DNA from: Candidatus Azambacteria bacterium
Lineage (GTDB): Bacteria > Patescibacteriota > Minisyncoccia > UBA10092
DNA: 64,000 bases
Direction: 5' to 3'
Assembly (NCBI GenBank): GCA_016213445.1
Contig: JACRAJ010000001.1
Span: forward strand, 78,203-142,202
This document shows positions 13,259 through 57,080 of this stretch, in pieces (the first letter of the stretch is position 1; every line of letters starts with the position of its first letter). The notes beneath the pieces were generated by a model. That model worked only from the letters and a program-made list of their open reading frames with translations. It was not told where the DNA came from and did no database searches. The position numbers and the translations under genes were made by a program.

Positions 13259-13339
13259 AAGTATAAATTTTTATTGGATCTTCAATAATTTGCGCAACCT
13301 CCGATGTTATATATTTATTGTCGACGCGATAATTTTGAA

Positions 13340-13882: not shown

Positions 13883-14011
13883 TTGTATTGATTAATTATT
13901 TAATGATAATTAATAATGATGAATCTATAAATTCACAACTACGGCATATATATGTAAATTATATCACATGGCAAATAAATAAACCTGTGTATAACATTTT
14001 CGGATTTAAAT

Positions 14012-14042
14012 AAAAAAGGGTTAGATAAAAAATATCTAACCC
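14012..14042 (-). terminator. rho-independent terminator after the lipoprotein gene
   Basis: 9-bp stem gggttagat/atctaaccc followed by a T-run on the minus strand. Confidence 0.6.
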
Positions 14043-14049
14043 CATTGCT

Positions 14050-16409: not shown

Positions 16410-17987
16410 TTACATTTTAGTTACTATCCCTAATTTGATAAGACGAGATCTAATGGCTCCGCTCGTCCTATTGAATATTCTTGCAAGATCAGAAATGGAT
16501 AAATTTCTTACAAACAGATCTCGTAGTTTATCATCCAGCGATTCGTCCCACGGCAAATAAGCGCTTGGATATTTCTCTCTTATTTTTTTAAAACCAGGTT
16601 GTGTAGAAATTTCTTGCGCGAAGACAGGTGAAAGCTTATTGGTGTTAGGTCCGTAAAATACGGTGTGCATTCCCGCAATAGCGGAATCCGACTGCGCGCG
16701 AAATTCGGCGTCTTTTATTAGTACATACGGATGCACCCGAAAAGCCTGCTCGTTCCAGCCGAGAAGATACAAACCCGAAAGCCGCCTAACGCGCGAAAGC
16801 GCGACATAGCCCTGGCCGAATTCAAACACACTGCTTAAATCCATCACCGCTTCATCTAAGCTCATACCTTGACTCTTATGCACTGTAATCGCCCAAGCAA
16901 GGCGAAGCGGCAATTGGGTGATTCGCGCGCGGATTTTGTTATCTTCTTCCACGGCCCAATCCATGGGCTCAACTTTAATTCGCCTTCCGTTTCGCGTTCT
17001 AACAATTGGATAGCCATTTTCTTTATCAAATTCTTCAACCGCGCCAAGTGTGCCGTTTGCAAAAATTCCTTTTAGGCTATTTTTTGTAAACATCACTGCC
17101 GCGCCAATTTTTAAATACAGCGTCTCCGGAGAAAGACAGCCTTTCTTAAGCGCGGAAATAAGCGCGTCCTGACCTTGTGAAGACATAGAAAATGTCTGCG
17201 GTTTGCCGGAAAGTTTAGCGAGCACTTCATTATTAACGCGGTCTACATCGGCATTATGGGAAAAAAGCTTCGGCACGCCAGTCGGCGCGGCATGAGGATT
17301 AATTTTTCTCGTTTCAATACAGCTTAAGTGATCGCCGTCAAAAATATTATTCCGAATAGCCGAAAGTAAGGCAAGATAATTGTCATCGTCCTGCCGATAT
17401 TGTTCCGTGAGATAACAAACATTTAAATTCGCGCGTTTCCACGCGGGAGAGTAATAAGCAAAGCGAGCCTGCGATTCTTCTCTGCCCAAGGCTGATCCGC
17501 CTTTGGCGGAAATGAGCGCTGTTTGCGTGTTATCTCCCACTTCTGTTTTTACAATCGGCGGTAATTGGAAAAAATCGCCGACTAAAACAATTTGAATACC
17601 CCCGAACGGTTCCGAACTTTGCTTGATTTCGCGGCATACGGCGTCAACCATATCCAAAGTACCGGGAGAAAGCATAGAAACTTCATCTATAATAAGCGTT
17701 TTGGCGCGCTGAACATGTTTTACGATGCGCTTGTTTGCCGCAATTTTATCAAGATCGTATTTTCTCAATCTTGTTTTAATTCCTATGCCGCTCCACGAGT
17801 GAATTGTCATCCCGCCTATGTGCGTCGCGGCGATGCCGGTTGAGGCCGTAATCGCCGGCTCAATGCCGCGCACGCGCAAATATGTCGCGTACTCGTTTAC
17901 AGTATGTGTCTTGCCGGAGCCAGGTTCGCCGGTCAAAAAAACATTCACGCCGGATTTCAATATTGATAGCGCTTGGGATTGAGTCAT
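16410..17987 (-). CDS. SF1B helicase (Pif1/RecD-like) with C-terminal HTH
   Basis: GEPGSGKTH (Walker A), IIDEVSML, VLVGDFFQLPPI and ITVHKSQGMSLD motifs, plus a C-terminal HTH-like ISDLARIFNRTSGAIRSRL. Confidence 0.85.
   Translation of the reverse strand: MTQSQALSILKSGVNVFLTGEPGSGKTHTVNEYATYLRVRGIEPAITASTGIAATHIGGMTIHSWSGIGIKTRLRKYDLDKIAANKRIVKHVQRAKTLIIDEVSMLSPGTLDMVDAVCREIKQSSEPFGGIQIVLVGDFFQLPPIVKTEVGDNTQTALISAKGGSALGREESQARFAYYSPAWKRANLNVCYLTEQYRQDDDNYLALLSAIRNNIFDGDHLSCIETRKINPHAAPTGVPKLFSHNADVDRVNNEVLAKLSGKPQTFSMSSQGQDALISALKKGCLSPETLYLKIGAAVMFTKNSLKGIFANGTLGAVEEFDKENGYPIVRTRNGRRIKVEPMDWAVEEDNKIRARITQLPLRLAWAITVHKSQGMSLDEAVMDLSSVFEFGQGYVALSRVRRLSGLYLLGWNEQAFRVHPYVLIKDAEFRAQSDSAIAGMHTVFYGPNTNKLSPVFAQEISTQPGFKKIREKYPSAYLPWDESLDDKLRDLFVRNLSISDLARIFNRTSGAIRSRLIKLGIVTKM
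17481..17510. repeat. 30-nt double-hairpin palindrome copy (degenerate left half), in frame in the helicase
   Basis: tctgcccaaggctgatccgcctttggcgga encodes SAKGGSALG on the coding strand. Confidence 0.75.
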
Positions 17988-17999
17988 AAAATTTCTGAA

Positions 18000-20228: not shown

Positions 20229-20232
20229 GAGT

Positions 20233-21804
20233 TTATATTGGTTTAAAGTGAAAAATTATTTCTGAATACGGATTGCGATCTCGCTCTGTCCGATTCAACA
20301 CAGGCCGTTTAAATTGATTTACAATTCTCATTCCCGACTTCTCTGCAATTTCGGGATAAAGATTATATTTATCATTTGCCACGAGAAAAACATCAAAATC
20401 GTTTTTTAGATATTGTTTACAATTATTTAACACATCCGCAATACCTTGCGCGTATAACCGGCGCGCTTCCAATCCTTGCCCCTTGTAAAGCGGGCCAATC
20501 TCTAAGTCATCTTTACGCTTAAATCCGAGTAGATCGTAAGCATAAGCATGTTGTTCGTGATAATCAATTTGTCCGACATACGGAGGCGAGCAGAAAATAC
20601 CTGCTATTTTTTGATTTTTTAATATTTTAGAAAATTCGGGATTTTGTTCTTCTATTTTTTCAAAAATATTTATAGTCCTTGAATCACCCGCTAAAATAGA
20701 ATAATGAACCGGTTTTCGTAATCTACTAAATTCTATAATTCTACTTAAAGTGTCAAAAGCATAACGATTCAGCATGGTCGCGATGGAGAAAAGCGGCTTA
20801 CATATTTTTTTGTGCTTGTAGCAGTAATAAGTTGTCAGTTGGGGCACTTTGAGAGTCGCTAAATCGCTGTGCGTAGTAGCGCGACATGATCTGATTGTTC
20901 TGCTCAAAATTAAAGCGAGAATTTTTCGTGTTTTTATGTCTTTCTCTTGTCTTATTGTCTTAAAAACATGATCAATTTCTTTGCGCGCGTTTTCTATAAA
21001 CCACTTATCAAGAAATGATAAAGATTTATCCTGCTTTAATTTAATTGAGTATTTCTTGAGTAGTTTTTGATAAATAGGCAAAAATTCTCTTTCTTTCTCT
21101 ATGGCAAATTTATTTTCATCAAAGCTTTTTTGATTAACTTTATATTTGAAGCCATGCCCCGGAAAGTGCACCGAGTTAAATTTGGCAAGTTCAGTCAAAA
21201 GTTCATTTTCAAAATCCTTAATTTTATTGTCATGTTCAAAAGAATTAAGCGAAGCAAGCATTTTTTTAACCGCTTGCTGTAAATATTCATAATCATAATG
21301 CGCCGCCTTACAACTTGCGATCATACAATTAAATTCTGAAACATCTATACCTATAGAATGGATACCTGTTTCAAGCGATTGGATAATAGTTGTCCCAGAG
21401 CCTAAAAATGGGTCTAAAACAATATCCCCGGGTTTAAAATATGTTTCTTTTTTGAAATTGTCAGTATGAGTGTCTATAAAATATTCAACAAGTTGAGGAA
21501 TATATTTACCCTTATATGGGTGTAGTCGATGAACATGCTTTGTAGTATCTACTTCTTTCAAATTATCAAAAGAAAGCGTCCAATTTAAATCATTTCCGAG
21601 CCTTTCTTTCCAACTAATCTCCCTGCTTCTGTATGAATCATAATATTTTTTCAAATCATTTAAATCAACAAGTGTTGAACCATTTCCTCCATGTTTTTTT
21701 ACTTTTCCATATTGAACTAAATAAGAAATATTTGTAGGTAATACTTCTTTATTAAGAAGCGCGGAAGCCCATTTTGATGCCTCAAATATAGACACTAAAT
21801 TCAT
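20233..21804 (-). CDS. DNA methyltransferase, alpha-class order (motif I before motif IV), SPPY type (N4-C or N6-A)
   Basis: DPFLGSGTT (AdoMet motif I) near aa 140 and IFCSPPYVGQIDY (motif IV) near aa 405. Confidence 0.8.
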   Translation of the reverse strand: MNLVSIFEASKWASALLNKEVLPTNISYLVQYGKVKKHGGNGSTLVDLNDLKKYYDSYRSREISWKERLGNDLNWTLSFDNLKEVDTTKHVHRLHPYKGKYIPQLVEYFIDTHTDNFKKETYFKPGDIVLDPFLGSGTTIIQSLETGIHSIGIDVSEFNCMIASCKAAHYDYEYLQQAVKKMLASLNSFEHDNKIKDFENELLTELAKFNSVHFPGHGFKYKVNQKSFDENKFAIEKEREFLPIYQKLLKKYSIKLKQDKSLSFLDKWFIENARKEIDHVFKTIRQEKDIKTRKILALILSRTIRSCRATTHSDLATLKVPQLTTYYCYKHKKICKPLFSIATMLNRYAFDTLSRIIEFSRLRKPVHYSILAGDSRTINIFEKIEEQNPEFSKILKNQKIAGIFCSPPYVGQIDYHEQHAYAYDLLGFKRKDDLEIGPLYKGQGLEARRLYAQGIADVLNNCKQYLKNDFDVFLVANDKYNLYPEIAEKSGMRIVNQFKRPVLNRTERDRNPYSEIIFHFKPI

Positions 21805-22007
21805 ATAAATATTATATCTCAATTTAAAAATTTAAAAAACCTCCAACCGACCCCCATCAAATCGAGCCCTGGAAAGATCGCCTGAAAAGCCCTACAATGC
21901 TTGTATAAGTAAAGTTCTAGAGCGACACACACCGCAGACGATTTTTGCTATCGAGAACCGACTCACTGATGACGTTAGTGAGACCGTGACGCTCGATGCG
22001 AAAACAA

Positions 22008-22329: not shown

Positions 22330-22842
22330 GTGGTCGAGTTGTATAAAAGAAAACCAAATACTAATTGTTTTATCTGCAACAAACCTATTTACAGAAGACC
22401 CTGTGAAATGCAGAAAAACAAAGGACGAGTCTTTTGTAATGCAATTTGTTATGGCATCTCTTGTAGAAAAGAGAATCCTTGTGTAATTTGCGGTAAATTA
22501 ATCTTATCGGGATTGAACAAAAAAACTTGCAGCAGAAGTTGCGCAAATAAACACAGGACGGGGATTAAATACAAAATTAATAGACCAAAAGATAAGGTTA
22601 TATCACAACGAGCTTTAAAAATTAGATTATTAAAAAATAGAGGGAAAAGTTGTGAACGTTGCAACTATGATAAATATGAGATATTGCAAGTCCACCATAA
22701 AAATAGAAACAAAAATGATAATAATATCGATAATCTTGAACTTATTTGCCCAAACTGTCATTTTGAGGAACATTTTTTGGAAAAAAGCTGGTTGAAAAAT
22801 TTTAAGGAAGGGTCGGATAGCGGTTTATTCCACCGCACTTGA
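22330..22842 (+). CDS. HNH endonuclease (free-standing, homing-type) whose 3' end runs 37 nt into tRNA-Ser
   Basis: Multiple CxxC zinc-ribbon pairs and the HNH core EILQVHHKNRNKNDNNIDNLELICPNCH. The start codon is uncertain (GTG/TTG). Confidence 0.75.
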   Translation: MVELYKRKPNTNCFICNKPIYRRPCEMQKNKGRVFCNAICYGISCRKENPCVICGKLILSGLNKKTCSRSCANKHRTGIKYKINRPKDKVISQRALKIRLLKNRGKSCERCNYDKYEILQVHHKNRNKNDNNIDNLELICPNCHFEEHFLEKSWLKNFKEGSDSGLFHRT

Positions 22843-26253: not shown

Positions 26254-26320
26254 CTCTTATATCGGCAAACGCAATTTAAATGATTTGATTTTGTGTCTAC
26301 CATTTGATATAATTTTCTTA

Positions 26321-26791
26321 ATGAAAAGAAGATCTTGGACCGAAAAACAATTAAAAAACGCAGTTAAAAATTCTTTTAGTTATAGACAAGTTTTAACTAA
26401 ACTAAATTTGCGCGAAGCAGGCGGAAACTACGCTCAAATAAAAAGATATATTAGAGAGTTTGAATTGGATATAAAACATTTTAAAGGACGAGGTTGGAAT
26501 TTGGGAATGCGAGGCATAGGAATACCCCGAATACCTTTAGAAAAAATTTTAGTTAAGAACAGTAATTTTCAAAGTTTTAAGTTGAAAAAAAGATTATTTG
26601 CCGCTGATTTAAAACCTAAAAATTGCGAGGAATGCGGATGGTCGCAAAGAACAGCTGATGGTTATTTACCTTTGGAATTAGATCATATCAACGGCGATCA
26701 TTACGATAATCGGATAGATAATCTAAGAGTTTTATGTCCTAATTGCCATAGTTTAAAACCAACACATCGTGGTAGGATTAGAAAGATTTAA
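26321..26791 (+). CDS. HNH endonuclease (homing-type) ending immediately before tRNA-Leu
   Basis: N-terminal WTEKQLKNAVKNSFSYRQVLTKLNL DNA-binding-like module and HNH core LELDHINGDHYDNRIDNLRVLCPNCH. Confidence 0.8.
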   Translation: MKRRSWTEKQLKNAVKNSFSYRQVLTKLNLREAGGNYAQIKRYIREFELDIKHFKGRGWNLGMRGIGIPRIPLEKILVKNSNFQSFKLKKRLFAADLKPKNCEECGWSQRTADGYLPLELDHINGDHYDNRIDNLRVLCPNCHSLKPTHRGRIRKI

Positions 26792-30613: not shown

Positions 30614-31504
30614 TTATTTTTCTTTGTAAATATTGGTGGTGAAACCGTCGCTTAAAACTTTAATGTCGCCATTCCGGTCGGTGCGAAAAATATTCATATT
30701 AAACATCTTAAAGCGGCTCAATGTTGCCGGCGACGGATGGCCATAGCGATTTTTGGCGCCAACCTCGACTATTGCCGCCTTCGGAGAAACTGCTTTCAAA
30801 AAACTTAAAGAAGAAGAATATTTCGAGCCGTGATGACCGACTTTTAAAATATCCGATTTCAAATTATCGCCGTAAACCAAAAGCCGGTTTTCTATTTTAA
30901 AAGTGGCATCGCCGGTAAATAATATGGAAAAATCGCCGTAAATCAATTTGCCGACAATGGAAGTGTCATTAACGTCATTGCCATTTGCGCCGAATCCTTC
31001 GCTTTTGCCGTTAAAAACCCTGCCGCCGGAATTTTCATCGGGAGAAATAATGTCAAACTCCGCATTTTCATCAAAATGAACGGCATCGCCGGCCGATGCG
31101 ATTAAAACTTCCGCCCCATTGTCTCTAACGGCGGTTAAAAACTGATTATAATTATCGGTTTTTAAATCGGCGCCGTTTAAAATCACCAAGCCGATATCGT
31201 ATCTTCTCAAAATTTCAATCAGGCCGGCAACGTGATCGGCGTGAGGATGGGTAAGAAGAATCACGTCGATTCTTTTTTTAATCGGCGAAAGATATTTGCC
31301 CAATTTTTCCAAAACTTTGTTGCCGGGTCCGCCGTCGATCAGCATTGTCTGCCCTTTCGGCGTTTTTATTAAAATCGCGTCGCCTTGCCCGACATCCAAA
31401 AAATCCGCCTCCAAAATCCGGCCGGGCCTTTGGCTTAAAACCAAAAACCAAACTGCCGAAGCAATTGCAAAAAGGCCGATTAATATTGAAAATTTATTTT
31501 TCAC
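30614..31504 (-). CDS. ComEC C-terminal metallo-beta-lactamase domain, encoded as a separate ORF
   Basis: LLTHPHADHVAGL motif, an N-terminal TM helix and an ATGA overlap with the upstream comEC ORF. Confidence 0.8.
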   Translation of the reverse strand: MKNKFSILIGLFAIASAVWFLVLSQRPGRILEADFLDVGQGDAILIKTPKGQTMLIDGGPGNKVLEKLGKYLSPIKKRIDVILLTHPHADHVAGLIEILRRYDIGLVILNGADLKTDNYNQFLTAVRDNGAEVLIASAGDAVHFDENAEFDIISPDENSGGRVFNGKSEGFGANGNDVNDTSIVGKLIYGDFSILFTGDATFKIENRLLVYGDNLKSDILKVGHHGSKYSSSLSFLKAVSPKAAIVEVGAKNRYGHPSPATLSRFKMFNMNIFRTDRNGDIKVLSDGFTTNIYKEK

Positions 31505-32919
31505 AATGAAATTGAAGCAAACGGCAAAGAACTTAATATTTTAACAATCCAAATCTGGTATGAAAGCGCGAGCCATGCCGGAAAAATAAAAATTGAGGCG
31601 ATCTTTACGGAAATAAATCCCGTTAATCCGGCTAAAAAACCAAAAAGCATCGTGAATGGAACGGCGGGCAAGATTAAAACATTGGCCAAAATGGCGATTA
31701 AAGAAAAACGGTTGAAACTGAAAAGAACAACCGGCAAAGTGGCAACCCGGGCCGATAAAGTGGCCGCCAAATTGTCGCGAAAAGACAAAAAATTCGGCAG
31801 ACGGGAAAATCGGCTCGCAAAATGAGGCGCTAAATATACCAATCCCAAAGTGGCCAAAAATGAAAGCTGAAAACCGGCATCGTATCGCAACAGATAAGGA
31901 TTTAAAAATAGCATAACGGCGGCGGCAAAAATAATAGCGTTGGTTATGCTGTAAAGCCGGCCTTCATGCCTGGCCAAAATAAGCAAGCCGCCCATAACTG
32001 CTGCCCGCACCACCGAAGCGCCGGCGCCGGCAATCAAAGTGAATAAAACCAGGCAAACGCCGGCCACCCAGAAAATCAATCTTCTCGGCAAAAATAAATA
32101 GCCCAAAAAATTTAAAAGCATAACGCTGATGATGGAAATGTTATAACCGGAGATAGCCACAATGTGGCTGGTGCCGGTAATATTGAAAGCGTCGGTCAAA
32201 TCGGCGGGCAAAGTCCGCCTGGCGCCAACCAAAAGAGCGGCTAAAAAAGAAGCTTGCGGCTCCAAAAGAATTTTATTGATAACGCCGACAAACGATTTTT
32301 TAATTTCCAAAAGACGGCCGTAAAAATTTTTAACGGCCGGCCGCTCGATCAAATCAATTTTCGGATACCGGCTGATCAGAAAAATTCCATCCTTCGCCAA
32401 ATAATTTTTATAATCAAAACCGGACTCGCCGGCGCGAGATTCCGGCGATTCGATTTTTCCGTTTATTTTCAAAATATCGCCGTAAAAGTATTCCGGATAA
32501 AGCTTAGTTTTCACGAGAACGCGGCCAAGCGCGCCGTTTTCCAGAACATATTGGGCGAAATCCGAACGCCGATCCGGTTCTTCGACAATCTTTCCGGAAA
32601 AATTTATTTTTTCTCCGATGACAAAATTGGCGCCGGCCAAACTGCCGGCGTAATTAAAAACCTTAAAACTGCGCCAAAATCCAAAAGCCAAGGCCAAAAG
32701 GCAAAATCCGAAAATTATTTTAATTTTCCAGCCCAAAACTGGTCCGCCTCTGGCGGAAAAATCCGGCTTATTCCTTTTTAAAACGGCAGTAGCTAAAATC
32801 GAAAAAGAAAAAACAAAAATCCCGCCGATAAGCGCGGGCGGGATTTTTATTGTCGAATATGCAAATACGCCTCCGATAAAACTCAGCAGAAAAAGCGCAA
32901 AAATTTTACTTTTCGCCAT
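31501..32919 (-). CDS. comEC: ComEC/Rec2 DNA-uptake channel (membrane competence domain)
   Basis: 472-aa polytopic protein with conserved TGTSHIVAISGYNI. Confidence 0.8.
   Translation of the reverse strand: MAKSKIFALFLLSFIGGVFAYSTIKIPPALIGGIFVFSFSILATAVLKRNKPDFSARGGPVLGWKIKIIFGFCLLALAFGFWRSFKVFNYAGSLAGANFVIGEKINFSGKIVEEPDRRSDFAQYVLENGALGRVLVKTKLYPEYFYGDILKINGKIESPESRAGESGFDYKNYLAKDGIFLISRYPKIDLIERPAVKNFYGRLLEIKKSFVGVINKILLEPQASFLAALLVGARRTLPADLTDAFNITGTSHIVAISGYNISIISVMLLNFLGYLFLPRRLIFWVAGVCLVLFTLIAGAGASVVRAAVMGGLLILARHEGRLYSITNAIIFAAAVMLFLNPYLLRYDAGFQLSFLATLGLVYLAPHFASRFSRLPNFLSFRDNLAATLSARVATLPVVLFSFNRFSLIAILANVLILPAVPFTMLFGFLAGLTGFISVKIASIFIFPAWLALSYQIWIVKILSSLPFASISL
32728..32757. repeat. 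degenerate double-hairpin palindrome copy, in frame in comEC
   Basis: ...ggtccgcctctggcgga encodes SARGGPVLG. The right half is 14/15 to the consensus. Confidence 0.5.
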
Positions 32920-35286: not shown

Positions 35287-35316
35287 TCAGCCAGAGGCTG
35301 ATCCGCCTTTGGCGGA
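35287..35316. repeat. double-hairpin palindrome copy, intergenic (ftsA 5' region)
   Basis: tcagccagaggctgatccgcctttggcgga. The right half is exact and the left half 12/15. Confidence 0.75.
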
Positions 35317-38872: not shown

Positions 38873-39439
38873 ATGGATAAAATCAACCCCAAATTAATCG
38901 CCGGATTGGGCAATCCGGGAAAAGAATATGAAAACACCCGCCACAATGTCGGTTTTTTGTTTGTTGACGCGCTTGCCGAGAAATTAAACGCGCCTGAATT
39001 TACTTATGATAAAAAACTTAAATCGGAAATTTCCAAATCGGAAATTTTACTTGCCAAGCCACAAACCTTTATGAACAAATCGGGCGAGGCGGTTTCGGCT
39101 CTAATAAAGTACTACCACCCTACGGGTGACCACCCGAAGGGTGGTAAAATCAAGCCGGAAAACATTTTAATCGTCCACGACGACATCGACATTTTATGGG
39201 GCGATTTCAAATTTTCTTTCGGCCGCTCGTCCGCCGGTCACAAAGGAGTTGAATCGATAATTAAAGCGCTGAAAACTAAAAATTTTTGGCGGCTGAGAAT
39301 CGGCATTAAACCCGACGCCAAAAAACATATTTCGGCCGACAAAATAATCCTAAAAAAATTCACTTCAGCGGAAATGAAGACCTTGGATAAAACTATAAAA
39401 ATCGCGATTGCCGAATTGTTCGGTGAAAAAATTTCGTAA
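38873..39439 (+). CDS. pth: peptidyl-tRNA hydrolase (carries a 10-aa insert)
   Basis: LIAGLGNPGKEYENTRHNVGF and IVHDDIDI motifs. Confidence 0.9.
   Translation: MDKINPKLIAGLGNPGKEYENTRHNVGFLFVDALAEKLNAPEFTYDKKLKSEISKSEILLAKPQTFMNKSGEAVSALIKYYHPTGDHPKGGKIKPENILIVHDDIDILWGDFKFSFGRSSAGHKGVESIIKALKTKNFWRLRIGIKPDAKKHISADKIILKKFTSAEMKTLDKTIKIAIAELFGEKIS
39116..39145. repeat. 30-nt in-frame double-hairpin insert (caccc-tac-gggtg ac caccc-gaa-gggtg gt)
   Basis: Encodes HPTGDHPKGG between the conserved KYY and KIKPENILIVHDD segments of Pth. Confidence 0.7.
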
Positions 39440-40390: not shown

Positions 40391-42429
40391 AACTAATAAT
40401 CGTCGAATCACCAACAAAAGCCAAAACAATTTCAAAATTTTTGGGAAAAGAATTCGAGGTCGAATCGTCATACGGCCATGTTCGGGATTTGCCCGAAAAA
40501 ACGCTGGGAGTCGATATTGAACATAATTTCGAACCAAAATATGTAATTGTTCCCAAGGCGAAGAAAAGAGTGGCCGAGCTTAACGCGGCGGCGAAAAAAT
40601 CAACCGAAGTGATTCTGGCAACCGACGAAGACCGGGAAGGCGAAGCTATCGCCTGGCATCTCGTTCAAGCCTTGGGCTTGGAAAAGCCAAAATCAAAAAC
40701 GGAAAAACGGAAAATCGAGAGAATTGTTTTTCATGAAATAACCGAAAGCGCCATTAAAAAAGCGCTGGAAAATCCGCGGGGAATCGACGCAAAACTCGTC
40801 GGCGCCCAACAAGCGCGGCGAGTTTTGGATCGCTTGGTGGGCTACAAGCTTTCGCCGTTTCTGCGAAAAAAAGTCGCCAAAGGCTTGTCGGCCGGCCGCG
40901 TGCAATCCGTCGCCGTCCGCCTTGTCACCGACCGCGAAAAAGAAATTCAAAATTTCAATCCGGAAGAATACTGGACGATTACCGCAAATCTTGAAAAATT
41001 AAAGGTACCCGCCTCCGCCAAGGCTTCGGCGGGCGAGCAAAGCTCGAACTTTGAAGCCCAACTCGCAAAAATCGGCGAAAATAAACTCGAAAAGTTTTCC
41101 ATAAAAAACAAAGAAGAAGCGGATAAAATTTTTTCCGACTTGTCCGGCTCCGACTGGCGAGTTTTAAAAATAGAAAAGAAAGAAACCAAGCGCCAGCCGC
41201 TCGCGCCGTTCACCACCTCGACGCTCCAACAAACCGCCTGGGCTTGGCATGGCTTCGGCGCCAAGCAAACTATGGTTCTCGCCCAACAGCTTTATGAAAC
41301 CGGCTTAATCACCTACATGCGCACCGACTCGGTAAATCTTTCAAAAGACTCGATTGCGGCGGCTTATCAAAAAATAAAAAAAGATTTCGGCGAAAATTAT
41401 TTGCCCGCGGCTCCGAGAGTTTACAAAACAAAATCCAAAACGGCGCAGGAAGCCCATGAAGCCATCAGGCCGACATCGCCGGAAAAAAATCCTGAAACGC
41501 TCAAAGAAAAACTCGACCCCCGGCAACACAAGCTTTATGATTTGATTTGGAGAAGATTTATCGCCAGCCAAATGGCAAGCGCAGTTTTTGAAGCCACCGG
41601 CGTCGATGTTTTAGCCGAAAAATCCGGCGGCAACTATACTTTCAGAGCCACGGGCAATACGCTTAAATTCGACGGCTTTTTGAAAGTGTATTCCCAAAAA
41701 TTGACGGAAATTTTATTGCCGGCGTTAGAAGAAAAAGAACCTTTGAACTTGAAAAAATTGTTGCCGGCGCAACACTTTACCGAGCCGCCGCCGCGCTACA
41801 ACGAAGCCAGTTTGATTAAAGCGTTGGAAGAAAACGGCATCGGGCGGCCGTCGACATACGCTCCGACGCTGGCCACGATTCAGGCGCGCAATTATGTCAT
41901 TAAAGACGAACAGAAAAGGCTGAAGCCGACCGAAGTCGGAACATTGGTAAACGATATTTTGGTCGAACATTTTCCGGAAATCGTCGAACTGAAATTCACT
42001 GCCAGAATGGAAGAGAATCTCGATGAAATCGCCGAAGGAAAAAAAGAATGGCAACCGGTGGTAAAAGAATTCTGGGTGCCTTTTAAAGAAAATCTCGATA
42101 AAAAAACAATGGAAATTTCAAAAGAAAAAATCGCCGTCGAAAAAACCGAATTAAAATGCCCCGAATGCGGCAAAGATTTATTGATAAGAATGGGGCGTTT
42201 CGGAAAATTTTACGCCTGCTCCGGCTTTCCGGATTGCAGGTACACGGCTCCGCTAAAAAAATCTTCCGACGGCGAAACCGCGGAAAGAGAAGATTTCGGC
42301 CCGTGTCCGAAATGCGAAACCGGTAAAATTGTGAGAAAACGCACCAGAAAAGGCCGCTTCTTCTGGGGGTGTTCAACTTGGCCAAAATGCGATTATGCCA
42401 CTTGGGAAAATCCGAAAAAAGATGAATAG
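40387..42429 (+). CDS. topA: DNA topoisomerase I
   Basis: TOPRIM MKLIIVESPTKAKTI, ATDEDREGEAI, catalytic region ITYMRTDS, and C-terminal zinc ribbons CPECG...C..C. Confidence 0.95.
   Translation: MKLIIVESPTKAKTISKFLGKEFEVESSYGHVRDLPEKTLGVDIEHNFEPKYVIVPKAKKRVAELNAAAKKSTEVILATDEDREGEAIAWHLVQALGLEKPKSKTEKRKIERIVFHEITESAIKKALENPRGIDAKLVGAQQARRVLDRLVGYKLSPFLRKKVAKGLSAGRVQSVAVRLVTDREKEIQNFNPEEYWTITANLEKLKVPASAKASAGEQSSNFEAQLAKIGENKLEKFSIKNKEEADKIFSDLSGSDWRVLKIEKKETKRQPLAPFTTSTLQQTAWAWHGFGAKQTMVLAQQLYETGLITYMRTDSVNLSKDSIAAAYQKIKKDFGENYLPAAPRVYKTKSKTAQEAHEAIRPTSPEKNPETLKEKLDPRQHKLYDLIWRRFIASQMASAVFEATGVDVLAEKSGGNYTFRATGNTLKFDGFLKVYSQKLTEILLPALEEKEPLNLKKLLPAQHFTEPPPRYNEASLIKALEENGIGRPSTYAPTLATIQARNYVIKDEQKRLKPTEVGTLVNDILVEHFPEIVELKFTARMEENLDEIAEGKKEWQPVVKEFWVPFKENLDKKTMEISKEKIAVEKTELKCPECGKDLLIRMGRFGKFYACSGFPDCRYTAPLKKSSDGETAEREDFGPCPKCETGKIVRKRTRKGRFFWGCSTWPKCDYATWENPKKDE
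41008..41033. repeat. GC-rich hairpin insert (subfamily B) in frame in topA
   Basis: cccgcctccgccaaggcttcggcggg encodes PASAKASAG. It is the counterpart of the pilin-leader copy. Confidence 0.6.
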
Positions 42430-47452: not shown

Positions 47453-49077
47453 CGCTTTTTATTTATCGCCGCCCTTACAAACTCCCGAAAAAGCGGGTGG
47501 GGACTTAAAGGGCGCGATTTGAATTCCGGATGAAACTGCGTGCCGACAAAAAAAGGATGTTCCTTTTTGGGCAATTCGGCGATTTCCATCAGCCGGCGGT
47601 CGGGCGAAAAACCGGAAAAAACAATTCCTTTTTCTTCCAATTTTTTCACGTACAGCGGATTAACTTCATAGCGGTGGCGATGCCTTTCGGAAATTAAATG
47701 CTCTTTATACGCGCCGTAAGCGATGGTTCCCTTTTTTAAAACCGCCGGGTAAGCCCCCAAGCGCATCGAACCGCCGTAATTTTTTTCCTCCAACAGCTTT
47801 TTTTGTTCGGGCAAAATATCAATAACCGGATGCTGGACTTCCGGATTTATTTCCGTGGTGTTGGCGTCTTTAAGTCTGAGAACCGAGCGGCCGTATTCAA
47901 TCACCGCAAGCTGCATTCCGTAGCACAGCCCTAAAAAAGGAATTTTTTTCTCTCTCAAATAGCGAATGGCCGCAATTTTGCCTTCCACTCCCCGGCTTCC
48001 AAAGCCGCCGGGGATAACAACGCCGTCATATTCCGATAATTTTTTAAGATTGTCTTGACCGCTGAATTCATCGGCGTTCAGCCAATGAAGCTCCGGCTTT
48101 TTTTTGAAAAAATAAATGGAATGTTTCAGCGCTTCAATAACCGAGATATACGAATCGGCTAAAATAAAATCTCCTGTCCCGAAATATTTGCCGACAATGC
48201 CGATCTTTACCGGATTTTTGGCGCGGCGGGTGATTTCCGCCAATTTTTCCCAATCTTTCAGGTCTTGTTTTTTGGGTTTGAGTTTTAATTTTTTTAAAAT
48301 AACGCCACCCAAATTATCTTTCTCAAAATTAACGGGCACCTCATAAATGCTATTTACATCGGGAGCCGAAATGACGTCTTCTTCCGCCATACTGCAATTG
48401 AAAGCTATTTTGTCTTTGCGTTTTTTATCAAGCGGCATCGGAGCCCTCGCGATAATAATATCGGGCTGAAGACCCGCGGCGTTTAAAGTCCGCGCCGCGT
48501 ATTGGGTCGGCTTGGTTTTTAATTCGCCTTCCGATCCTTGGAGGGGCAAATGGCTCACCAGCGACAAAAGAACATCGTTCGGCTTTTTGATTTTTAATAT
48601 TCTTATCGCCTCCAAAAATAAAATATTCTGATATTCGCCAACCGTGCCGCCGATTTCCACGATTACGACATTGGCCTTGCTTTTAGCCGCGGCTTTGTCG
48701 ATTTTATTTAAAACTTCCAAACAGATATGCGGCACGACTTCAACGCATTTTCCGCCGTAGCCCAAGTTTCTTTCCCTGTTAATCACCGCCTGATACACGC
48801 TGCCGGTGGTCATATAGTTGGCGGAAGACAAGTCGCAATCCAAGAATCTTTCGTAATTGCCCATATCCTGGTCGCACTCCATTCCGTCATTGAGAACAAA
48901 AACTTCGCCGTGCTCCGTCGGATTCATTGTGCCGGCATCAAGGTTTACATAAGGGTCGATTTTAATGGCGGTAACCGAAAAGCCCCTTGATTGGAGAATC
49001 TTGCCGATTGAAGCGGCGGCCACGCCTTTGCCGACGCCGGACATAACGCCGCCAACAATGAAAATATATTTGAGCAT
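47449..49077 (-). CDS. pyrG: CTP synthase
   Basis: GGVMSGVGKG, GLCYGMQ (GATase Cys) and HRHRYEVN. Confidence 0.95.
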   Translation of the reverse strand: MLKYIFIVGGVMSGVGKGVAAASIGKILQSRGFSVTAIKIDPYVNLDAGTMNPTEHGEVFVLNDGMECDQDMGNYERFLDCDLSSANYMTTGSVYQAVINRERNLGYGGKCVEVVPHICLEVLNKIDKAAAKSKANVVIVEIGGTVGEYQNILFLEAIRILKIKKPNDVLLSLVSHLPLQGSEGELKTKPTQYAARTLNAAGLQPDIIIARAPMPLDKKRKDKIAFNCSMAEEDVISAPDVNSIYEVPVNFEKDNLGGVILKKLKLKPKKQDLKDWEKLAEITRRAKNPVKIGIVGKYFGTGDFILADSYISVIEALKHSIYFFKKKPELHWLNADEFSGQDNLKKLSEYDGVVIPGGFGSRGVEGKIAAIRYLREKKIPFLGLCYGMQLAVIEYGRSVLRLKDANTTEINPEVQHPVIDILPEQKKLLEEKNYGGSMRLGAYPAVLKKGTIAYGAYKEHLISERHRHRYEVNPLYVKKLEEKGIVFSGFSPDRRLMEIAELPKKEHPFFVGTQFHPEFKSRPLSPHPLFREFVRAAINKKR

Positions 49078-49086
49078 ATGTAATGA

Positions 49087-49239
49087 ATTCTAAACCCAAT
49101 ACCATTGCTTTTTCTTGCGCGTTCGCCCCGCCAGCGCGGGGCTCTCTGTCCGTCCTCGCCCCGACGCTCCCGCTACGCGGGAGACCATGCCGTCGGGGCT
49201 GCGGAAGCTGTGAAAAACCAATGGTATTGGGTTTAGAAT
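49087..49239. ncRNA. 153-nt structured element: 21-bp perfect closing stem around a GC-rich core with three perfect hairpins (ncRNA or MITE; class unknown)
   Basis: attctaaacccaataccattg (49087-49107) pairs with 49219-49239. Inner helices: gccccgc/gcggggc, gccccgac/gtcggggc, ctcccgc/gcgggag. Confidence 0.5.
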
Positions 49240-49276
49240 CAGTTTTTAATGTAATTACAAAAAGAATAACTCGATT

Positions 49277-50149
49277 TCAAATCTTTTGGCAACTTGGACA
49301 AAAATGAGCTGACCGGCCGCCGATTTTCAGCCGTTTAATTTTTCCGCCGCACCTCATTGGGCACCGTTCTCCTTCCTTGCGATAAACCAAACGCGCTTCG
49401 GAATAGCACCCCGATTTTCCCGCCGTGTCCCTGTAATCCGAAATCGAGGTGCCGCGCAATTTAATCGCCTTTTTTAAAATTTTCTTTGTAGCCGAAAAAA
49501 TCGCCCGCAATTCTTTATCGCTCAATTTTTCGGCTTTTTTCAACGGATGCATTTTGGCAGCAAATAAAATTTCGTCGGAATAAATATTGCCTATTCCGGA
49601 AACGACGCTCTGGTCCATCAAGACTTTTTTTATCGGCCCGCGTTTTTTCATTATCAAATTTTTAAAATCGCCGAAATTAAATCCGGCGGCCAGCGGATCG
49701 GGGCCGATATTTTTCACGTCCTCAAGATTTTCGAAATCTTTTTTATCAACCGCCAAGATTTTGGCGAATTTTCTCAAATCGGAAAGCGCCAGCATATTAT
49801 TCCCGCCAAAAATGAACATTACGTGAATATAGCCGTTGACTTTTTCCGCGAGCGGCCCTTTTTTAGCCGCGATCCATTTTCCCCGATCCATAATCCATGA
49901 TCCGACAAGCAAATGCCCGGTCATTTTTTGATGGATTAAAATTTCCTTGCCGCCCGACAAATCAAAAATGATATTTTTGCCGATCCGCCGGATTTTTCCT
50001 ATTTTCCTGCCTACTATTGTTTTTTTGAAATTGCCAAATGAACACCGGAAATATTTCGGCCAGTCGGTCCAAACATCGGTTATGGTCAAACCTTTTATTT
50101 TCCTGTTTAAATCATTAACGATTGTTTGCACTTCGGGCAATTCAGGCAT
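49277..50149 (-). CDS. mutM: formamidopyrimidine-DNA glycosylase
   Basis: MPELPEV N-terminus and a C-terminal zinc finger C..C...C..C. Confidence 0.9.
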   Translation of the reverse strand: MPELPEVQTIVNDLNRKIKGLTITDVWTDWPKYFRCSFGNFKKTIVGRKIGKIRRIGKNIIFDLSGGKEILIHQKMTGHLLVGSWIMDRGKWIAAKKGPLAEKVNGYIHVMFIFGGNNMLALSDLRKFAKILAVDKKDFENLEDVKNIGPDPLAAGFNFGDFKNLIMKKRGPIKKVLMDQSVVSGIGNIYSDEILFAAKMHPLKKAEKLSDKELRAIFSATKKILKKAIKLRGTSISDYRDTAGKSGCYSEARLVYRKEGERCPMRCGGKIKRLKIGGRSAHFCPSCQKI

Positions 50150-52865
50150 ATTTTTTTCTCCCTTCGGGAGATCCCTTGTAGGGGGACATGTCCGACCAAT
50201 TATCGCCGGCTTTCGCTTCGGTGATAATCGGCACTTTTCCGCCAATGGCGGATCCGCCTTTGGCGGATAATTTTATTACGCCCTGCATTATTTCCATAAT
50301 TTTCGGCGCGAATTTTTCAACCAAGCCTTTTTTAACTTCAAACAATAATTCATCGTGGACCTGCAAGATCATTCTCAAATCGCCGTTATAATTTTCTTTC
50401 CGAATCCAATCGTCAATTTCAATCATCGCTTTTTTCATAATGTCGGCTTCCAGGCCTTGAATGGGCATATTTACCGCCATTCTTTCCGCTTGCGATCGCA
50501 GCATATAATTCGGAGAATTAAGTTCGGGCAAATAACGCCGCCGGCCAAAAAATGTGACGGCAAAACCGTTTTTCCGAGCATCGTCTTTCAGTTTTTGAAT
50601 ATAATCCGCAATGCCGGAAAAATCTTTGAGATATTCCTCCATAAATTGCTCCGCCCTTTCTTTGCTGATTTTGGCGGCTTCGGCAAAACTCTGCGCACCC
50701 ATTCCATATATGATACCGAAATTCAATTCTTTGGCGGCAAAACGCATTTCCGGCGTCACCTTTTCGATAGATACGTTATTAATTTCCGCCGCGGTAAATT
50801 TGTGAATGTCCAAACCGTCTTTAAAGGCCTTGATCATTTTTTTATCGCCGGCCAAAGCGGCAATGATTCTTAAATGAATTTGCGAATAGTCAACCGATAA
50901 AAATTTGAAACCCGATTCAGCCGCAAAAGCCCTTCGTATGTCGCCGCTGAAATCGCCCCGCGCCGGAATATTTTGTAAATTCGGATCCTGGCTTGAAAGG
51001 CGGCCGGTGGCCGTTCCGGTTTGATTAAACGTCGTATGGATGCGGTGAATTTTATCAACCAAATTCGGCAAAGCGTCGGCGTACGTCGATTTCAATTTGG
51101 CAAGTTCGCGATACTTTAAAATATAATCGATTATTTTATGCTCGCCGCGGAGTTTTTCGAGCTCGCCGGCGCTTGTTGAAAGCGCGCCGCCGGGCGTTTT
51201 TTTAATGCGTCCGCCGGAACGCGCGCCGGGAATTTTCAATTTAACGAAAATAATTTCCGCCAATTGCCGCGGCGAATTAATGTTGAATTTTTCGCCGGCC
51301 AAATCGTAAATTTCCTTTTCCAAACCTTCCAATTTATTTTTTAATTCACCGGCGGTTTTTTTAAGGCTTTCACCGTCCAGCCCGATGCCGATTGTTTCCA
51401 TTTTCGCCAAAACAGGAATAAGCGGCATTTCAATTTCTTTAAAAACCCTTTCGGTTTCGGTGGCGGCGAGGCGCGCCAAAAGCGCCGATTCCAATTTTTT
51501 TAAAACATTCGCCTTAAAAGCCAAAGACTCGTCGGGATTTTCGGGCACACTCTCCCCGAACTCTTTCATAATAAGTTTTTCAATACCGTAATCGCGTTCG
51601 CCCGGATTTAAAACATAAGCGGCGATTTCCGCGTCAAATTCCAAACCGTAAAAATCCATATTTTTTTTCCAAAACGCTTTGATCAAGGATTTCAAATCGC
51701 AGCCGATTTTTTTAATTTTTTTGCCGGAAATAATTTCGGCAACGCTTGAAAAATCGTTTTCCAAAAGATAAATACTCTTCCCGTCGTTTACCCCGTTAGA
51801 AACTTTGCTTCTAACGGGGTTTATCGCCAGCGCCTTAAGATTGCCATTTTCGATTTGATGCGCCAAATAAATCTCCTTGGCCGTTTTTAATTCTCCAATC
51901 AATTTTTCCAAACTCAAATCCCGCGGAACTTTTTTATATTCTATTCTTTCGGCAATTTTTAAAGGCATTGCCAAAACGCCCTGCTCGCCGGCGGATTTTA
52001 ATCTTTCTATCAAACTCATAAACCCCAATTCCCTGAAAACTTCGAAAATTTTTTCTTTGTCGAATTTTCCGAACGCGCTTTTTTCCAAAGAAAAATCAAT
52101 CGGAACGTTCGTATCCAAAATCGCCAGCTTTTTTGAAAAAAAAGCCGCTTCTTTTCCGGCTTTTAATTTTTCCAAAACGGATTTGCCGATGCCGCCAACT
52201 CGCCCGCTTTCCACGGCCTCATAAAGTTTTTCAATCGTCTTGTATCGATTTAACAAGTTGATGGCCGTTTTTTCGCCGATGCCTTTAACGCCGGGAATAT
52301 TGTCGGAAGGATCGCCTTTGAGCCCTTTAAAATCCGGCATTTGTTCGGGCGAGAGCCCTTCGAATCGCTCTCCGACTTTTTTTGCGTCATAAATAACCGG
52401 ATCGCTTAAGCCCCGCTTCGGCGTGTAAACTTTAATATTATCGCAGACAAGCTGAAGCGTATCCATATCGCCGGTAAGAATAAAAACTTCGATGTCTTTT
52501 CCGGAGAGTTTCCGGCTGACGGTTCCGATAATATCATCGGCCTCGTAACCAGACTTTTCATAAACCGGAATTTCAAAAGCCGCAAGAATTTCTTTAACTC
52601 TCGGAATTTGAATATACAAATCGGGCGGCGCTTCCGGTCGCGTGGCTTTGTATTTTCCGTATTCTTTGTGGCGAAATGTCGGCTCGGGCAAGTCAAAGGC
52701 GGCGGCAATATAATCGGGCTTAAATTCGCCAATAGTCTTTATTAAAATGGAAGAAAATCCGAAAACCGCGTTCACCGATTCGCCGCTTTTGGAGCTAAGC
52801 GGCGGTAAAGCGTGGTAAGCGCGATGAATCAGGGCGTAGGCGTCAATTAAAATAAATTTTTTCAT
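50142..52865 (-). CDS. polA: DNA polymerase I
   Basis: 5'-nuclease N-terminus (LIDAYALIHRAYHA), pol motifs DYSQIHLRI and QVHDELLFE. Confidence 0.95.
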   Translation of the reverse strand: MKKFILIDAYALIHRAYHALPPLSSKSGESVNAVFGFSSILIKTIGEFKPDYIAAAFDLPEPTFRHKEYGKYKATRPEAPPDLYIQIPRVKEILAAFEIPVYEKSGYEADDIIGTVSRKLSGKDIEVFILTGDMDTLQLVCDNIKVYTPKRGLSDPVIYDAKKVGERFEGLSPEQMPDFKGLKGDPSDNIPGVKGIGEKTAINLLNRYKTIEKLYEAVESGRVGGIGKSVLEKLKAGKEAAFFSKKLAILDTNVPIDFSLEKSAFGKFDKEKIFEVFRELGFMSLIERLKSAGEQGVLAMPLKIAERIEYKKVPRDLSLEKLIGELKTAKEIYLAHQIENGNLKALAINPVRSKVSNGVNDGKSIYLLENDFSSVAEIISGKKIKKIGCDLKSLIKAFWKKNMDFYGLEFDAEIAAYVLNPGERDYGIEKLIMKEFGESVPENPDESLAFKANVLKKLESALLARLAATETERVFKEIEMPLIPVLAKMETIGIGLDGESLKKTAGELKNKLEGLEKEIYDLAGEKFNINSPRQLAEIIFVKLKIPGARSGGRIKKTPGGALSTSAGELEKLRGEHKIIDYILKYRELAKLKSTYADALPNLVDKIHRIHTTFNQTGTATGRLSSQDPNLQNIPARGDFSGDIRRAFAAESGFKFLSVDYSQIHLRIIAALAGDKKMIKAFKDGLDIHKFTAAEINNVSIEKVTPEMRFAAKELNFGIIYGMGAQSFAEAAKISKERAEQFMEEYLKDFSGIADYIQKLKDDARKNGFAVTFFGRRRYLPELNSPNYMLRSQAERMAVNMPIQGLEADIMKKAMIEIDDWIRKENYNGDLRMILQVHDELLFEVKKGLVEKFAPKIMEIMQGVIKLSAKGGSAIGGKVPIITEAKAGDNWSDMSPYKGSPEGRKKYA
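50238..50267. repeat. 30-nt double-hairpin palindrome copy, in frame near the polA C-terminus
   Basis: tccgccaatggcggatccgcctttggcgga encodes SAKGGSAIGG. Confidence 0.85.
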
Positions 52866-52970
52866 TGGTAAAATTGCGTCAAAATTTTCGCGAAACAATT
52901 GTATTACTTATTTCCTTCCTTATTTTAAATCCCTTACTCGGCCGATTGTATTATCCGGTTTTATTATATC

Positions 52971-55976: not shown

Positions 55977-56039
55977 GACGCTTTGCCAAGCGTCTCCGCG
56001 ATTATACTAAAAAATTATAGATTTGTCAATCCAAATAAA

Positions 56040-57080
56040 ATGGAAGATTTAAACTCAAAATTATCCGCCAAAGGCGGATCCGCCTTTGGCGGAAAGCCCG
56101 AAGACCGAACTCTCGACCAAGCTTTAAGGCCGCACATTTGGGATGAATATATCGGCCAGGAAAAAACCAAAACCAACCTCAAAATTCTTCTGGAAGCCGC
56201 CAAAAAACGCTCGGAACCGATCGATCACCTGCTTTTATACGGCCCGGCCGGCTTAGGCAAGACCACCTTGGCGTATATTATGGCGCGGGAAATGAACGCC
56301 AACATGAAAATCACCTCCGGCCCGGCAATAGAAAAAGTGGGCGATCTGGCTTCTATTCTAACAAATCTCAACAGCGGCGACGTGCTTTTTATCGATGAAG
56401 CCCATCGGTTGAATAAAACCGTTGAAGAAATCCTTTATCCGGCGATGGAAAACCGAATGCTTCATATTATCATAGGAAAAGGGCCGTCGGCCAGAACCTT
56501 GCAGCTTGATTTGCCGCCGTTTTCCTTAATCGCGGCAACCACCCGCGTCGGTTTATTGTCGAACCCCCTCCGCTCCCGATTCGGCGCCACTTTCCGGTTG
56601 GATTTTTACAGCATGGAAGACATAGAAAATATCTTAAAAAGATCGGCCGGGCTTATGGATTTGCAAACCGAACCGGAGGCGCTGAAAGAAATAGCCGCCT
56701 CATCGAGGTTTACCCCCCGCGTCGCCAACCGCCTGTTAAAGCGAGTGCGCGACTATGCCGAGGTTGAAGGCGATGGAATTATAAATAAAGAAATCGCCGA
56801 AAAAGCCTTGGCGCTTTTGGAAGTCGATCATTTGGGGCTGGAATCAACCGACCGCCGATTAATTGAGGTTATTATTAAAAAATTCAACGGCGGGCCGGTG
56901 GGCCTTCAGGCTTTGGCCGCCGCCGCTTCCGAAGAATTGGACACTATCGAAGACATAAACGAACCGTATCTTCTTCAAATCGGTTTTCTGCGGCGCACGC
57001 CCCGCGGCCGCATCGCCACCAAATTCGCCTATGAACATCTTGGCTTCAAGCCGCCCGCCGAAAATCAGAGCTTGCTTTAA
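56040..57080 (+). CDS. ruvB: Holliday junction helicase RuvB
   Basis: [24 protein letters not shown] and a sensor region. Start set at MEDLNSK. Confidence 0.95.
56064..56093. repeat. perfect 30-nt double-hairpin palindrome, in frame at ruvB codons 9-18
   Basis: tccgccaaaggcggatccgcctttggcgga is its own reverse complement and encodes [10 protein letters not shown]. Confidence 0.9.

Follow-up and report, generated by a model that had tools for sequence, protein, structure and literature searches.

The question raised by this locus is why the ruvB gene of a Candidatus Azambacteria genome carries, close to its start, a perfect 30-nt palindrome that is read in frame, and why related palindromes recur in unrelated genes of the same stretch. 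The stretch analyzed, referred to as the window, is 64 kb of contig JACRAJ010000001.1 and holds seven 30-nt elements, each of which is made of two adjoining 15-nt hairpin units and six of which lie in frame inside genes. We regard it as probable, though well short of certain, that the family is a non-autonomous copy-paste mini-element of 30 bp, which is tolerated in genes as a flexible linker.

Double hairpins and their empty sites

An earlier note, made from the sequence alone, had described five copies of a ccgcc-type palindrome, and all five were found again at the same positions (Table 1), four of them in genes identified by Pfam as those of RuvB, DNA polymerase I, a Pif1-like helicase and ComEC, and the fifth in the spacer between ybeY and ftsA. 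The Pif1-like and ComEC proteins of the window are 100% identical to NCBI entries that lie on a contig of 280 kb. These five copies have TCCGCC/TCAGCC stems (GCC type), and the other two, in pth and in the tail of polA, are of a CCC type. The motif CCGCCNNNGGCGG occurs 7 times in the window, compared with 0.05 occurrences expected from shuffles. As the earlier note had it, the ruvB copy (TCCGCCAAAGGCGGATCCGCCTTTGGCGGA) is a perfect palindrome that is free of stop codons in all three frames; it lies upstream of the RuvB_N domain, which starts at residue 32. The pth insert, to which the note had ascribed the same geometry with a different sequence, is real, and it scores 33.5 bits with a covariance model, although it was part of the training alignment of that model. 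The polA-tail copy is new, having been found with the covariance model (24.5 bits, E ~2e-5) outside the training set. Shorter variants had also been claimed for topA and for a pilin leader. The topA feature is indeed a lineage-specific insertion, but the palindrome in it is a different GC-rich one that is not significant with the model (E ~1.2), and its kinship to the 30-nt family is uncertain; the pilin-leader feature likewise gave no significant score with the model. The loops differ among all window copies.

Table 1. Positions, composition and added residues of the double hairpins in the window, and of the topA insertion
Feature	Position	Strand	Gene	Composition	Added residues and remarks
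GCC-type double hairpin in ruvB	56064..56093	.	56031-57080 (+)	perfect 30-nt palindrome TCCGCCAAAGGCGGA/TCCGCCTTTGGCGGA	10 residues after codon 8
GCC-type double hairpin in polA	50238..50267	-	50142-52898		SAKGGSAIGG between VIKL and KVPII; site AAATTA^AAA
GCC-type in Pif1-like helicase	17481..17510	-	16410-17987	TCCGCC unit + TCAGCC unit	SAKGGSALGR
Degenerate GCC-type in comEC	32728..32757	-	31501-32919	TCCGCC AGA GGCGGA / CCAGTT TTG GGCTGG	SARGGPVLGW
Intergenic GCC-type, ybeY/ftsA	35287..35316	-		TCCGCC unit + TCAGCC unit, TGA intact	top model score, 55.5 bits
CCC-type in pth	39115..39144	+	38873-39439	CCACCC TAC GGGTGA / CCACCC GAA GGGTGG	HPTGDHPKGG
CCC-type, last 15 codons of polA	50157..50186	-		TCCCCC TAC AAGGGA / TCTCCC GAA GGGAGA	SPYKGSPEGR
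42-nt lineage-specific insertion in topA	40997..41038	+		other GC-rich palindrome CCCGCCTCCGCCAAGGCTTCGGCGGG	indel relative to contig L140

The wider family was surveyed with two scans. For the GCC family, the pattern GCCNNNGGCNGATCCGCCNNNGGCGGA was used on one genome per species (at least 120 loci); for the CCC family, metagenomes were scanned for a fixed TCCCCC unit together with a second unit that has four free stem positions (at least 120 contigs). The general formula is TCNNCC-N3-GGNNGA, present twice, with a central GATC as the joint. Among the 130 GCC copies listed, the first unit is TCCGCC/GGCGGA in 63, TCAGCC/GGCTGA in 40 and TCTGCC/GGCAGA in 5, with a few others; in 122 copies, the bases of the free pair 3-13 match by Watson-Crick rules. 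The two-hairpin fold pairs 98.1% of the cells of an 80-sequence alignment, in which the variable pair 6-16 is CG in 36 sequences, AU in 33, UA in 5 and GC in 1. In the CCC scan, the four free stem positions are complementary in 111 of the 125 matches listed, and the second unit is mostly TCTCCC (67), followed by TCACCC (16), TCCCCC (12) and TCCGCC (11), the last of these being GCC/CCC hybrids. The covariation of the stems supports two hairpins, not one long one. A single long hairpin was considered and rejected: the two pairs that discriminate between the folds are broken in 35-43 of the 80 sequences, and loop complementarity is at chance (between the halves of the GCC family, 15 exact complements versus 15.8 expected). 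Folded as single-stranded DNA, each 15-nt unit reaches -5.9 kcal/mol and the doubles reach -11 to -17 kcal/mol. The number of units is constant, with 154 doubles and 0 triples in 1.1 Mb, where no array of three or more abutting units was found. On either strand, the 5′ unit has the loop NNA and the 3′ unit the loop TNN in 117 of the 130 copies listed. The loops of the CCC family are TNC, then GNA, and those of the two halves are non-independent (chi-square P = 4e-4).

The earlier note had proposed to look for presence/absence polymorphism between sister genomes, and precise empty sites were found for five of the insertions (ruvB, polA, Pif1, comEC and pth), either in orthologues from close relatives or in contigs with conserved synteny. 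At ruvB, the site is empty (NPKL/KPEDRTLDQ, where the slash marks the junction) in most orthologues from Azambacteria, which are 336-339 aa long and 85-90% identical, and an insert is present only in P0001, P0002 and P0003, in the diverged forms SAPGGSAFGG, SSPGGSIFGG and SAKGG-PPPDGRA-GAFGG. In the DNA alignment, the filled site AAAATTA[30 nt]AAGCCC and the empty site AAAATTAAAGCC differ by exactly 30 nt at TTA^AAG, with no target duplication; the other indels are also exactly 30 nt. The P0003 gene (L123 874-913) has a 21-nt GC-rich hairpin, CCCCCGCCTGACGGACGGGCAGG, nested in the middle of its element, which suggests that the GA/TC junction may itself be a hot spot for insertion or breakage.

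The 30-nt polA insert is absent from the syntenic contig L121 (VIKL/KVPII), whose polA has a degenerate element of its own elsewhere in the gene (SARSGPALSW) and a tail that differs from that of the window gene. The Pif1 insert is missing from 78 of 78 other aligned orthologues (ALI/EE), and a metagenome scan for the empty or filled Pif1 site using exact flanks gave no match. In comEC, the insert is a 30-nt indel relative to contig L138 with the flanks TTTT/AAAA; the nearest orthologues are empty (KKNDPDF/KNKIIFG), whereas in the more distant P0273 and P0266 this TTT^AAA site is filled with a perfect element and in one lineage it has a single unit (SAEGG). Three non-sister comEC lineages have an element at one TTT^AAA site, and such sharing by separate lineages indicates an insertion hot spot. 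The pth insert is a 30-nt indel that is absent from the pth of L140, and between ybeY and ftsA, which overlap in L140, the window has a specific stretch of 121 nt, of which the element and the spacer are part. In unbiased lists of indels relative to three syntenic contigs, the 30-nt indels with a GC fraction of at least 0.67 are double hairpins. The polymorphism also runs in reverse, as tsaE (two elements, L121) and polA of the sister contig are filled where the window is empty.

Two observations on individual sites may be added. The tsaE copy at L121 6974-7003, TCTGCCAAAGGCGGATCCGCCTTTGGCAGA, is palindromic over all 30 nt, and its variant base has its pairing partner in the other half and not within the same unit, the opposite of the family-wide pattern. 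The variable loop of Pif1 has other short lineage-specific inserts in P0155, P0159, P0160, P0164, P0168 and P0197 (SVLSDVEG, PVLSNIEG, DAFDKLSINPEQGRRI, LSAPRRDSG), some of which resemble the peptides of another palindrome family, suggesting that several GC-rich mini-elements use common permissive sites.

The target motif is TTN^NAA. Counted outward from the element, position +2 is A in 84% (GCC) and 91% (CCC) of the matches listed, position +3 is A in 57% and 85%, and position +1 is seldom T. T at -2 occurs together with A at +2 in 98 of 146 copies listed, and asymmetric elements are likewise constrained on both sides. The empty sites read TTA^AAG, TTA^AAA, ATT^GAA, TTT^AAA and TTG^AAA. As a result of this motif, inserts often stand directly before a lysine codon. 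No covariation exists between the two flanks, and past ±3 the flanks have little similarity. Two further ideas about the flanks were abandoned: as a third helix, positions -1/+1 to -6/+6 lack consistent complementarity above chance, and a copying of the loops from the target flanks gave weak correlations that are compatible with base composition.

Coding copies and distribution

All four coding GCC copies in the window read TCC-GCC-NNN-GGC-GGA, which agrees with the common frame seen in the earlier note, and the statistical test of frame bias that the note had called for gave a clear result. Copies were classed as deep in an open reading frame (ORF) when at least 60 open codons lie on both sides, which applies to 33 of 130 GCC and 52 of 126 CCC matches listed (25-41%). 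The frames of the deep GCC copies divide 29:3:1 in favor of Ser-Ala-x-Gly-Gly twice (P ~1e-10), and 23:1:0 at a threshold of at least 100 codons; those of the CCC copies divide 36:10:6, the favored frame being Ser-Pro-x-Gly-Gly/Arg. Since two of the three phases would be open at the target, target availability should not give such a bias, and selection on the peptide is therefore its simplest cause. The TCAGCC unit, which has a TGA in the favored frame, is mostly non-coding, and the coding copies avoid this stop codon by alteration to GGCAGA (Pif1) or to CCAGCC/GGCTGG (comEC, L121 polA). In Pif1, GGCAGA stands in place of GGCTGA exactly where an in-frame TGA would arise, and in the double change CCAGCC/GGCTGG the stop is gone while the base pair is kept. 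Elements also occur between genes and in all three coding frames. The same peptide encoded by non-palindromic DNA, which the earlier note had named as contrary evidence, did not turn up, the DNA being palindromic in every case examined.

Coding inserts are usually found at termini, in loops or in domain linkers, in line with the suggestion in the note that surface loops might be preferred. The polA insert lies between Klenow TRLD and VPLLVEV. The Pif1 insert lies in a loop after motif III that cannot be aligned to solved Pif1 structures, and the AlphaFold model of this helicase (mean predicted local distance difference test score, pLDDT, of 57) is too poor for use. In other genomes, inserts stand between or just after domains of DnaE, DnaG and Mfd; others interrupt UvrB, ArsA, a protein of the amylase family and HsdR, in the last case within the HSDR_N match. 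The carriers are often proteins of DNA metabolism, i.e., RuvB, PolA, Pif1 and ComEC in the window and DnaE, DnaG, UvrB, Mfd and HsdR elsewhere (L001, L038, L068, L113, L114), which may simply reflect the large conserved genes that small genomes have.

The elements are not peculiar to the Candidate Phyla Radiation (CPR), with which the earlier note had associated them. Among 120 genome loci listed, 53 are labelled CPR/Patescibacteria, from several classes; the other labels are Omnitrophota, Ignavibacteriota, Kiritimatiellae, Verrucomicrobiota, Lentisphaerae, Planctomycetales, Bacteroidota, Elusimicrobia, Firestonebacteria, Zixibacteria, Chloroflexota, Firmicutes, several proteobacterial groups and unclassified bacteria. 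The labels of these at least 120 loci thus span at least 15 phylum-level groups, with the proviso that they come from third-party assemblies and some are perhaps imprecise. Nearly all carriers are metagenome-assembled or single-cell genomes, and among them are contigs, e.g., one of 1.63 Mb from Ignavibacteriota, that are too long for mis-binned CPR DNA. A lone match in Streptomyces, which has atypical loops, is probably due to chance. Copies were also found in 13 viral contigs, mostly between genes; a collection of isolate plasmids gave one weak partial match and a collection of isolate phages gave none.

An all-versus-all comparison of 1587 ORFs from 133 element-bearing loci revealed no recurrent neighbor gene, as at most 6 of the 133 loci share a family. 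Copies whose halves are split by a gene were not seen, in scans that are not suited to long-range pairs. Among ~40 ORFs of the window that were scanned, Pfam identified a restriction-modification system, HNH genes and a PD-(D/E)XK nuclease.

Origin of the elements

Copy-paste insertion is favored because lineage-specific gains are found in every compared genome, because the target is defined and because rare variants are repeated: identical rare variants stand twice on one contig with different distal flanks (L225, L234, L213). The non-independent loop combinations of the CCC family and the tandem [element]AAAATTG[element] arrays (L223, L253) favor it as well. For such a mini-element, the hairpins would be recognized as folded single strands, and contacts specific for the bases would be made at two places of the stem, its foot (TC/GA) and its top (CC/GG); recognition of folded hairpins is indicated by the covariation of stem positions 3 and 4, while foot and top are fixed. 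The element would then be pasted into TTN^NAA without target duplication, by machinery that would act in trans and would not be encoded beside the copies. The lack of target duplication fits the single-strand chemistry of HUH enzymes, a fit that is weakened, however, by the absence of any sequence outside the two hairpins. Insertion would occur anywhere, with intragenic copies kept only where ten residues are harmless, and persistence would require the Ser-Ala/Pro-x-Gly-Gly frame, no in-frame TGA and a position at a terminus, a loop or a domain boundary. From these patterns we infer hairpin recognition in the single strand, the existence and nature of an enzyme, and horizontal transfer behind the cross-phylum identity.

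A broader proposal, to which we give somewhat less than an even chance, is that the elements are products of an unrecognized DNA-insertion system that is widespread in uncultivated bacteria, crosses phyla, and places modular 15-nt units at TTN^NAA, with no duplication of the target, by means of a new enzyme or a new activity of a known repair or replication enzyme. If this were true, they would be the smallest mobile DNA known and would steadily furnish essential proteins, in CPR as in other groundwater and sediment lineages, with short linkers rich in Gly.

Several points weigh against copy-paste insertion. No transposase, REP-associated tyrosine transposase (RAYT) included, was found by Pfam among the ~40 window ORFs scanned, and none is linked to the copies at the 133 loci. 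The halves are often of different unit types and their loops pair only at chance level, which is unusual in a transposon whose two ends are equivalent, and the two-sided palindromic target is at odds with the one-sided target of the known hairpin-using HUH transposases. No two copies in the window are identical, so that a recent burst in this genome is unsupported. Near-identical stems across many labelled phyla would need either frequent horizontal transfer or a conserved host factor. Finally, the frame bias is the one observation that points to translation of the ten residues as part of the host protein.

Part of this evidence would suit de novo repair scars, in which a blunt break at TTN^NAA gains at each 3′ end a self-complementary 15-nt unit, made on a template or by snap-back synthesis, before the ends are joined at GA/TC. 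Scars of this kind would explain why there are exactly two units every time, why the halves are often unlike, GCC/CCC hybrids included, why loop complementarity between the halves of the GCC family is at chance, and why each half has the same loop polarity on its own strand; the symmetric target without duplication and the differing loops of all window copies fit equally. We nevertheless consider repair scars unlikely, as identical rare whole-element variants occur at different sites of one contig and the CCC loops are non-independent, as would be the case for inherited whole elements, and we know of no enzyme that adds such units. Enzyme-free template switching, in which replication stalls at GC hairpins and the nascent strand switches by way of 2-3 nt of T/A microhomology and so carries the element to a new TT/AA site, seems to us quite unlikely. 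It is consistent with TT and AA on both flanks, with the lack of target duplication and of a linked gene, and with the tandem arrays, but microhomology of 2-3 nt is very weak for an ectopic switch, the flanks have little similarity beyond the core motif, and neither the cross-phylum near-identity of the stems nor the spread of TCNNCC-type hairpins alone is explained.

Selection for a function of the motif itself is very improbable, whether as a linker or signal in the protein or as a site in DNA or RNA that would bind a dimeric protein, serve DNA uptake or direct RNA processing. Although the stems are strongly conserved across many labelled phyla, genes for competence and pili (comEC, dprA, pil genes) abound in the window, and a 15-bp palindrome with a free center resembles a dimer-binding site, the elements are present or absent among close orthologues, sit in unrelated proteins at unrelated positions as well as between genes and in all three coding frames, and mix unit types within one element. 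Moreover, their density of ~1 per 9 kb is far below that of uptake sequences, and the elements have no Rfam match, six tRNAs alone having reached gathering scores in an Rfam 15 scan of the window. An assembly, adaptor or chimera artefact, which the earlier note had raised, can for practical purposes be set aside, despite the central GGATCC of the palindrome and the preponderance of metagenome-assembled carriers: the ruvB insert occurs, with sequence divergence, in independent ENA, JGI and NCBI assemblies, the carriers include records of 1.63 Mb and 1.77 Mb (very long contigs, whole chromosomes) along with short k-mer assemblies, and frame bias, TGA avoidance and target specificity are not expected from an artefact.

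Neighboring elements and comparison with known systems

Other palindromic elements were encountered along with the family. Between the CTP synthase gene and fpg, the window has a 153-nt element (49087-49239) resembling a MITE (a miniature transposable element with inverted repeats); its 21-nt terminal inverted repeats, ATTCTAAACCCAATACCATTG, are perfect, and it has GC-rich hairpins in its interior. It is present once in the window, inside a window-specific insert of 204 nt (49081-49284), and is absent from the syntenic L121; the RNA fold of the surrounding 221 nt (49070-49290) reaches -97 kcal/mol (z = -8.6). In metagenome-assembled genomes of Kiritimatiellae/Verrucomicrobia, the double hairpin is a module of a repeated intergenic element of ~185 nt (L010 4569-4752 and 6390-6572; L003, L054, L109), in which it adjoins a second GC-rich palindrome with the translation ...HPERSEEPALSEVEGI...RYARNDN.... 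This second palindrome is presumably widespread across phyla in database proteins, and a literature search for the HPERSEEPALSEVEGI/RYARNDN peptides found no paper.

Two loci associate the double hairpin with tRNA sequences. At L051 7381-7480, part of the 5′ half of the tRNA-Ser(TGA) found at L051 7748-7835 is duplicated, and this duplicate is broken exactly in the anticodon loop (CTTG^AAAA), at the usual target motif, by ~70 nt composed of hairpin units, a full double hairpin among them. At L097 340-640, two double hairpins stand 165 nt apart next to tRNA-Glu and to a degenerate copy that resembles a tRNA and has, in its T-arm region, a long-loop TCCGCC...GGCGGA hairpin.

As for genes, the Pif1-like helicase gene of the window is followed by one for a PD-(D/E)XK (Cas4-like) nuclease (both within 16410-18842), and an adjoining type II restriction-modification pair (19446-21822) consists of a TdeIII-family endonuclease and an N6/N4 methylase. 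TdeIII recognizes GGNCC; a link between this system and the elements was dropped, as the element has no such site. Two small HNH endonuclease ORFs stand beside tRNA genes (22330-22842, 26285-26791), and at E <= 1e-5 nothing in Pfam matches four consecutive minus-strand ORFs (11978-14943; 237, 185, 180 and 297 aa). In L121 (1154-3675), a reverse-transcriptase gene (RVT_1) and a hypothetical gene lie between fpg and polA, which abut in the window.

Searching the literature by DNA sequence, by peptide and by keyword returned only cloning primers or unrelated papers, and the family is apparently undescribed. It accounts for many hitherto unexplained 10-residue Gly/Ser/Ala/Pro loops in proteins of uncultivated bacteria, those of the CPR included, which bears on alignment, structure prediction and annotation. 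Presence or absence of a copy is a natural marker for strain typing and for horizontal transfer in groundwater and sediment communities, the positions tolerated in PolA, DnaE, DnaG, RuvB, UvrB and Mfd amount to a map of permissive linker sites, and the mechanism by which 30 bp are moved without target duplication is a testable question.

Compared with known systems, the elements combine features that are otherwise found apart. DNA uptake sequences (uptake signal sequences) are lineage-specific motifs with about one copy per kb, whereas seven copies per 64 kb are found here and the motif is common to many labelled phyla. Like classical MITEs, which have terminal inverted repeats, the elements have halves that are inverted 15-bp copies save for their loops, with no internal sequence between them; unlike classical MITEs, they show no target-site duplication. 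Insertion sequences of the IS200/IS605 family, including the palindrome-associated transposable elements (PATEs), resemble them in that each end has a hairpin, the target is not duplicated and the empty sites are seamless. The target of IS200/IS605 elements, however, is one-sided, a tetra- or pentanucleotide 3′ of which they insert, and they depend on guide sequences that lie outside the hairpins, whereas here both flanks are constrained and nothing exists beyond the two hairpins.

Repetitive extragenic palindromes (REPs), their RAYT-associated doublets (REPINs) and bacterial interspersed mosaic elements (BIMEs) are alike in being GC-rich hairpin repeats of 20-40 bp that are often paired, non-autonomous and mosaic in their units, with hairpin recognition being plausible. 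REPs are extragenic and species-specific, and the RAYT gene is flanked by REPs. A GTAG or CGTC tetranucleotide forms the head of REPs, at one end (PMC3733652). The consensus here, TTT-TCNGCC...GGCGGA-AAA, lacks GTAG/CGTC, a quarter or more of the copies lie deep in ORFs, the stems hardly differ from phylum to phylum and the search for a linked gene found none. The GC clusters or double-hairpin elements (DHEs) of fungal mitochondria are small GC-rich palindromic units, mobile in AT-rich DNA, found between genes as well as in coding and rRNA sequences, and of unknown enzymology; they are organellar, longer, heterogeneous and lineage-specific, whereas the elements here are bacterial, exactly 30 bp long and follow the TCNNCC formula, so that the likeness is one of analogy only. 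The same applies to PARCEL (repeat coding elements that are palindromic and amphipathic), i.e., coding DNA with dyad symmetry whose patchy distribution across distant clades has been attributed to horizontal transfer (PMC2996958). Both add protein sequence, are coding DNA with dyad symmetry and are patchily distributed, but PARCEL consists of 25-residue amphipathic tandem domains in accessory ORFs for membrane proteins, whereas single 10-residue inserts in housekeeping proteins are found here.

The closest parallel is that drawn in the earlier note, to the Rickettsia palindromic elements (RPEs), which are not known outside the Rickettsia lineage. It stands as far as behavior is concerned, i.e., palindromic insertion in frame, while the features that mark membership in the RPEs, in the REPs or in the MITEs are lacking. 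RPEs, described in Rickettsia, are about 100-150 bp long and form ten families, with a conserved encoded peptide (PMC10969869). Both kinds of element are palindromic and non-autonomous, lie in frame in unrelated housekeeping genes, where they are read through as peptide, and occur between genes as well. The descriptions of RPEs set them apart from an element of 30 bp and ten residues, built of two 15-nt units, that occurs under labels of many phyla and encodes nothing but a Gly/Ser/Ala/Pro linker. If confirmed, the family described here would be the most compact selfish DNA inside protein-coding genes, and its range would be many labelled phyla rather than one endosymbiont genus.

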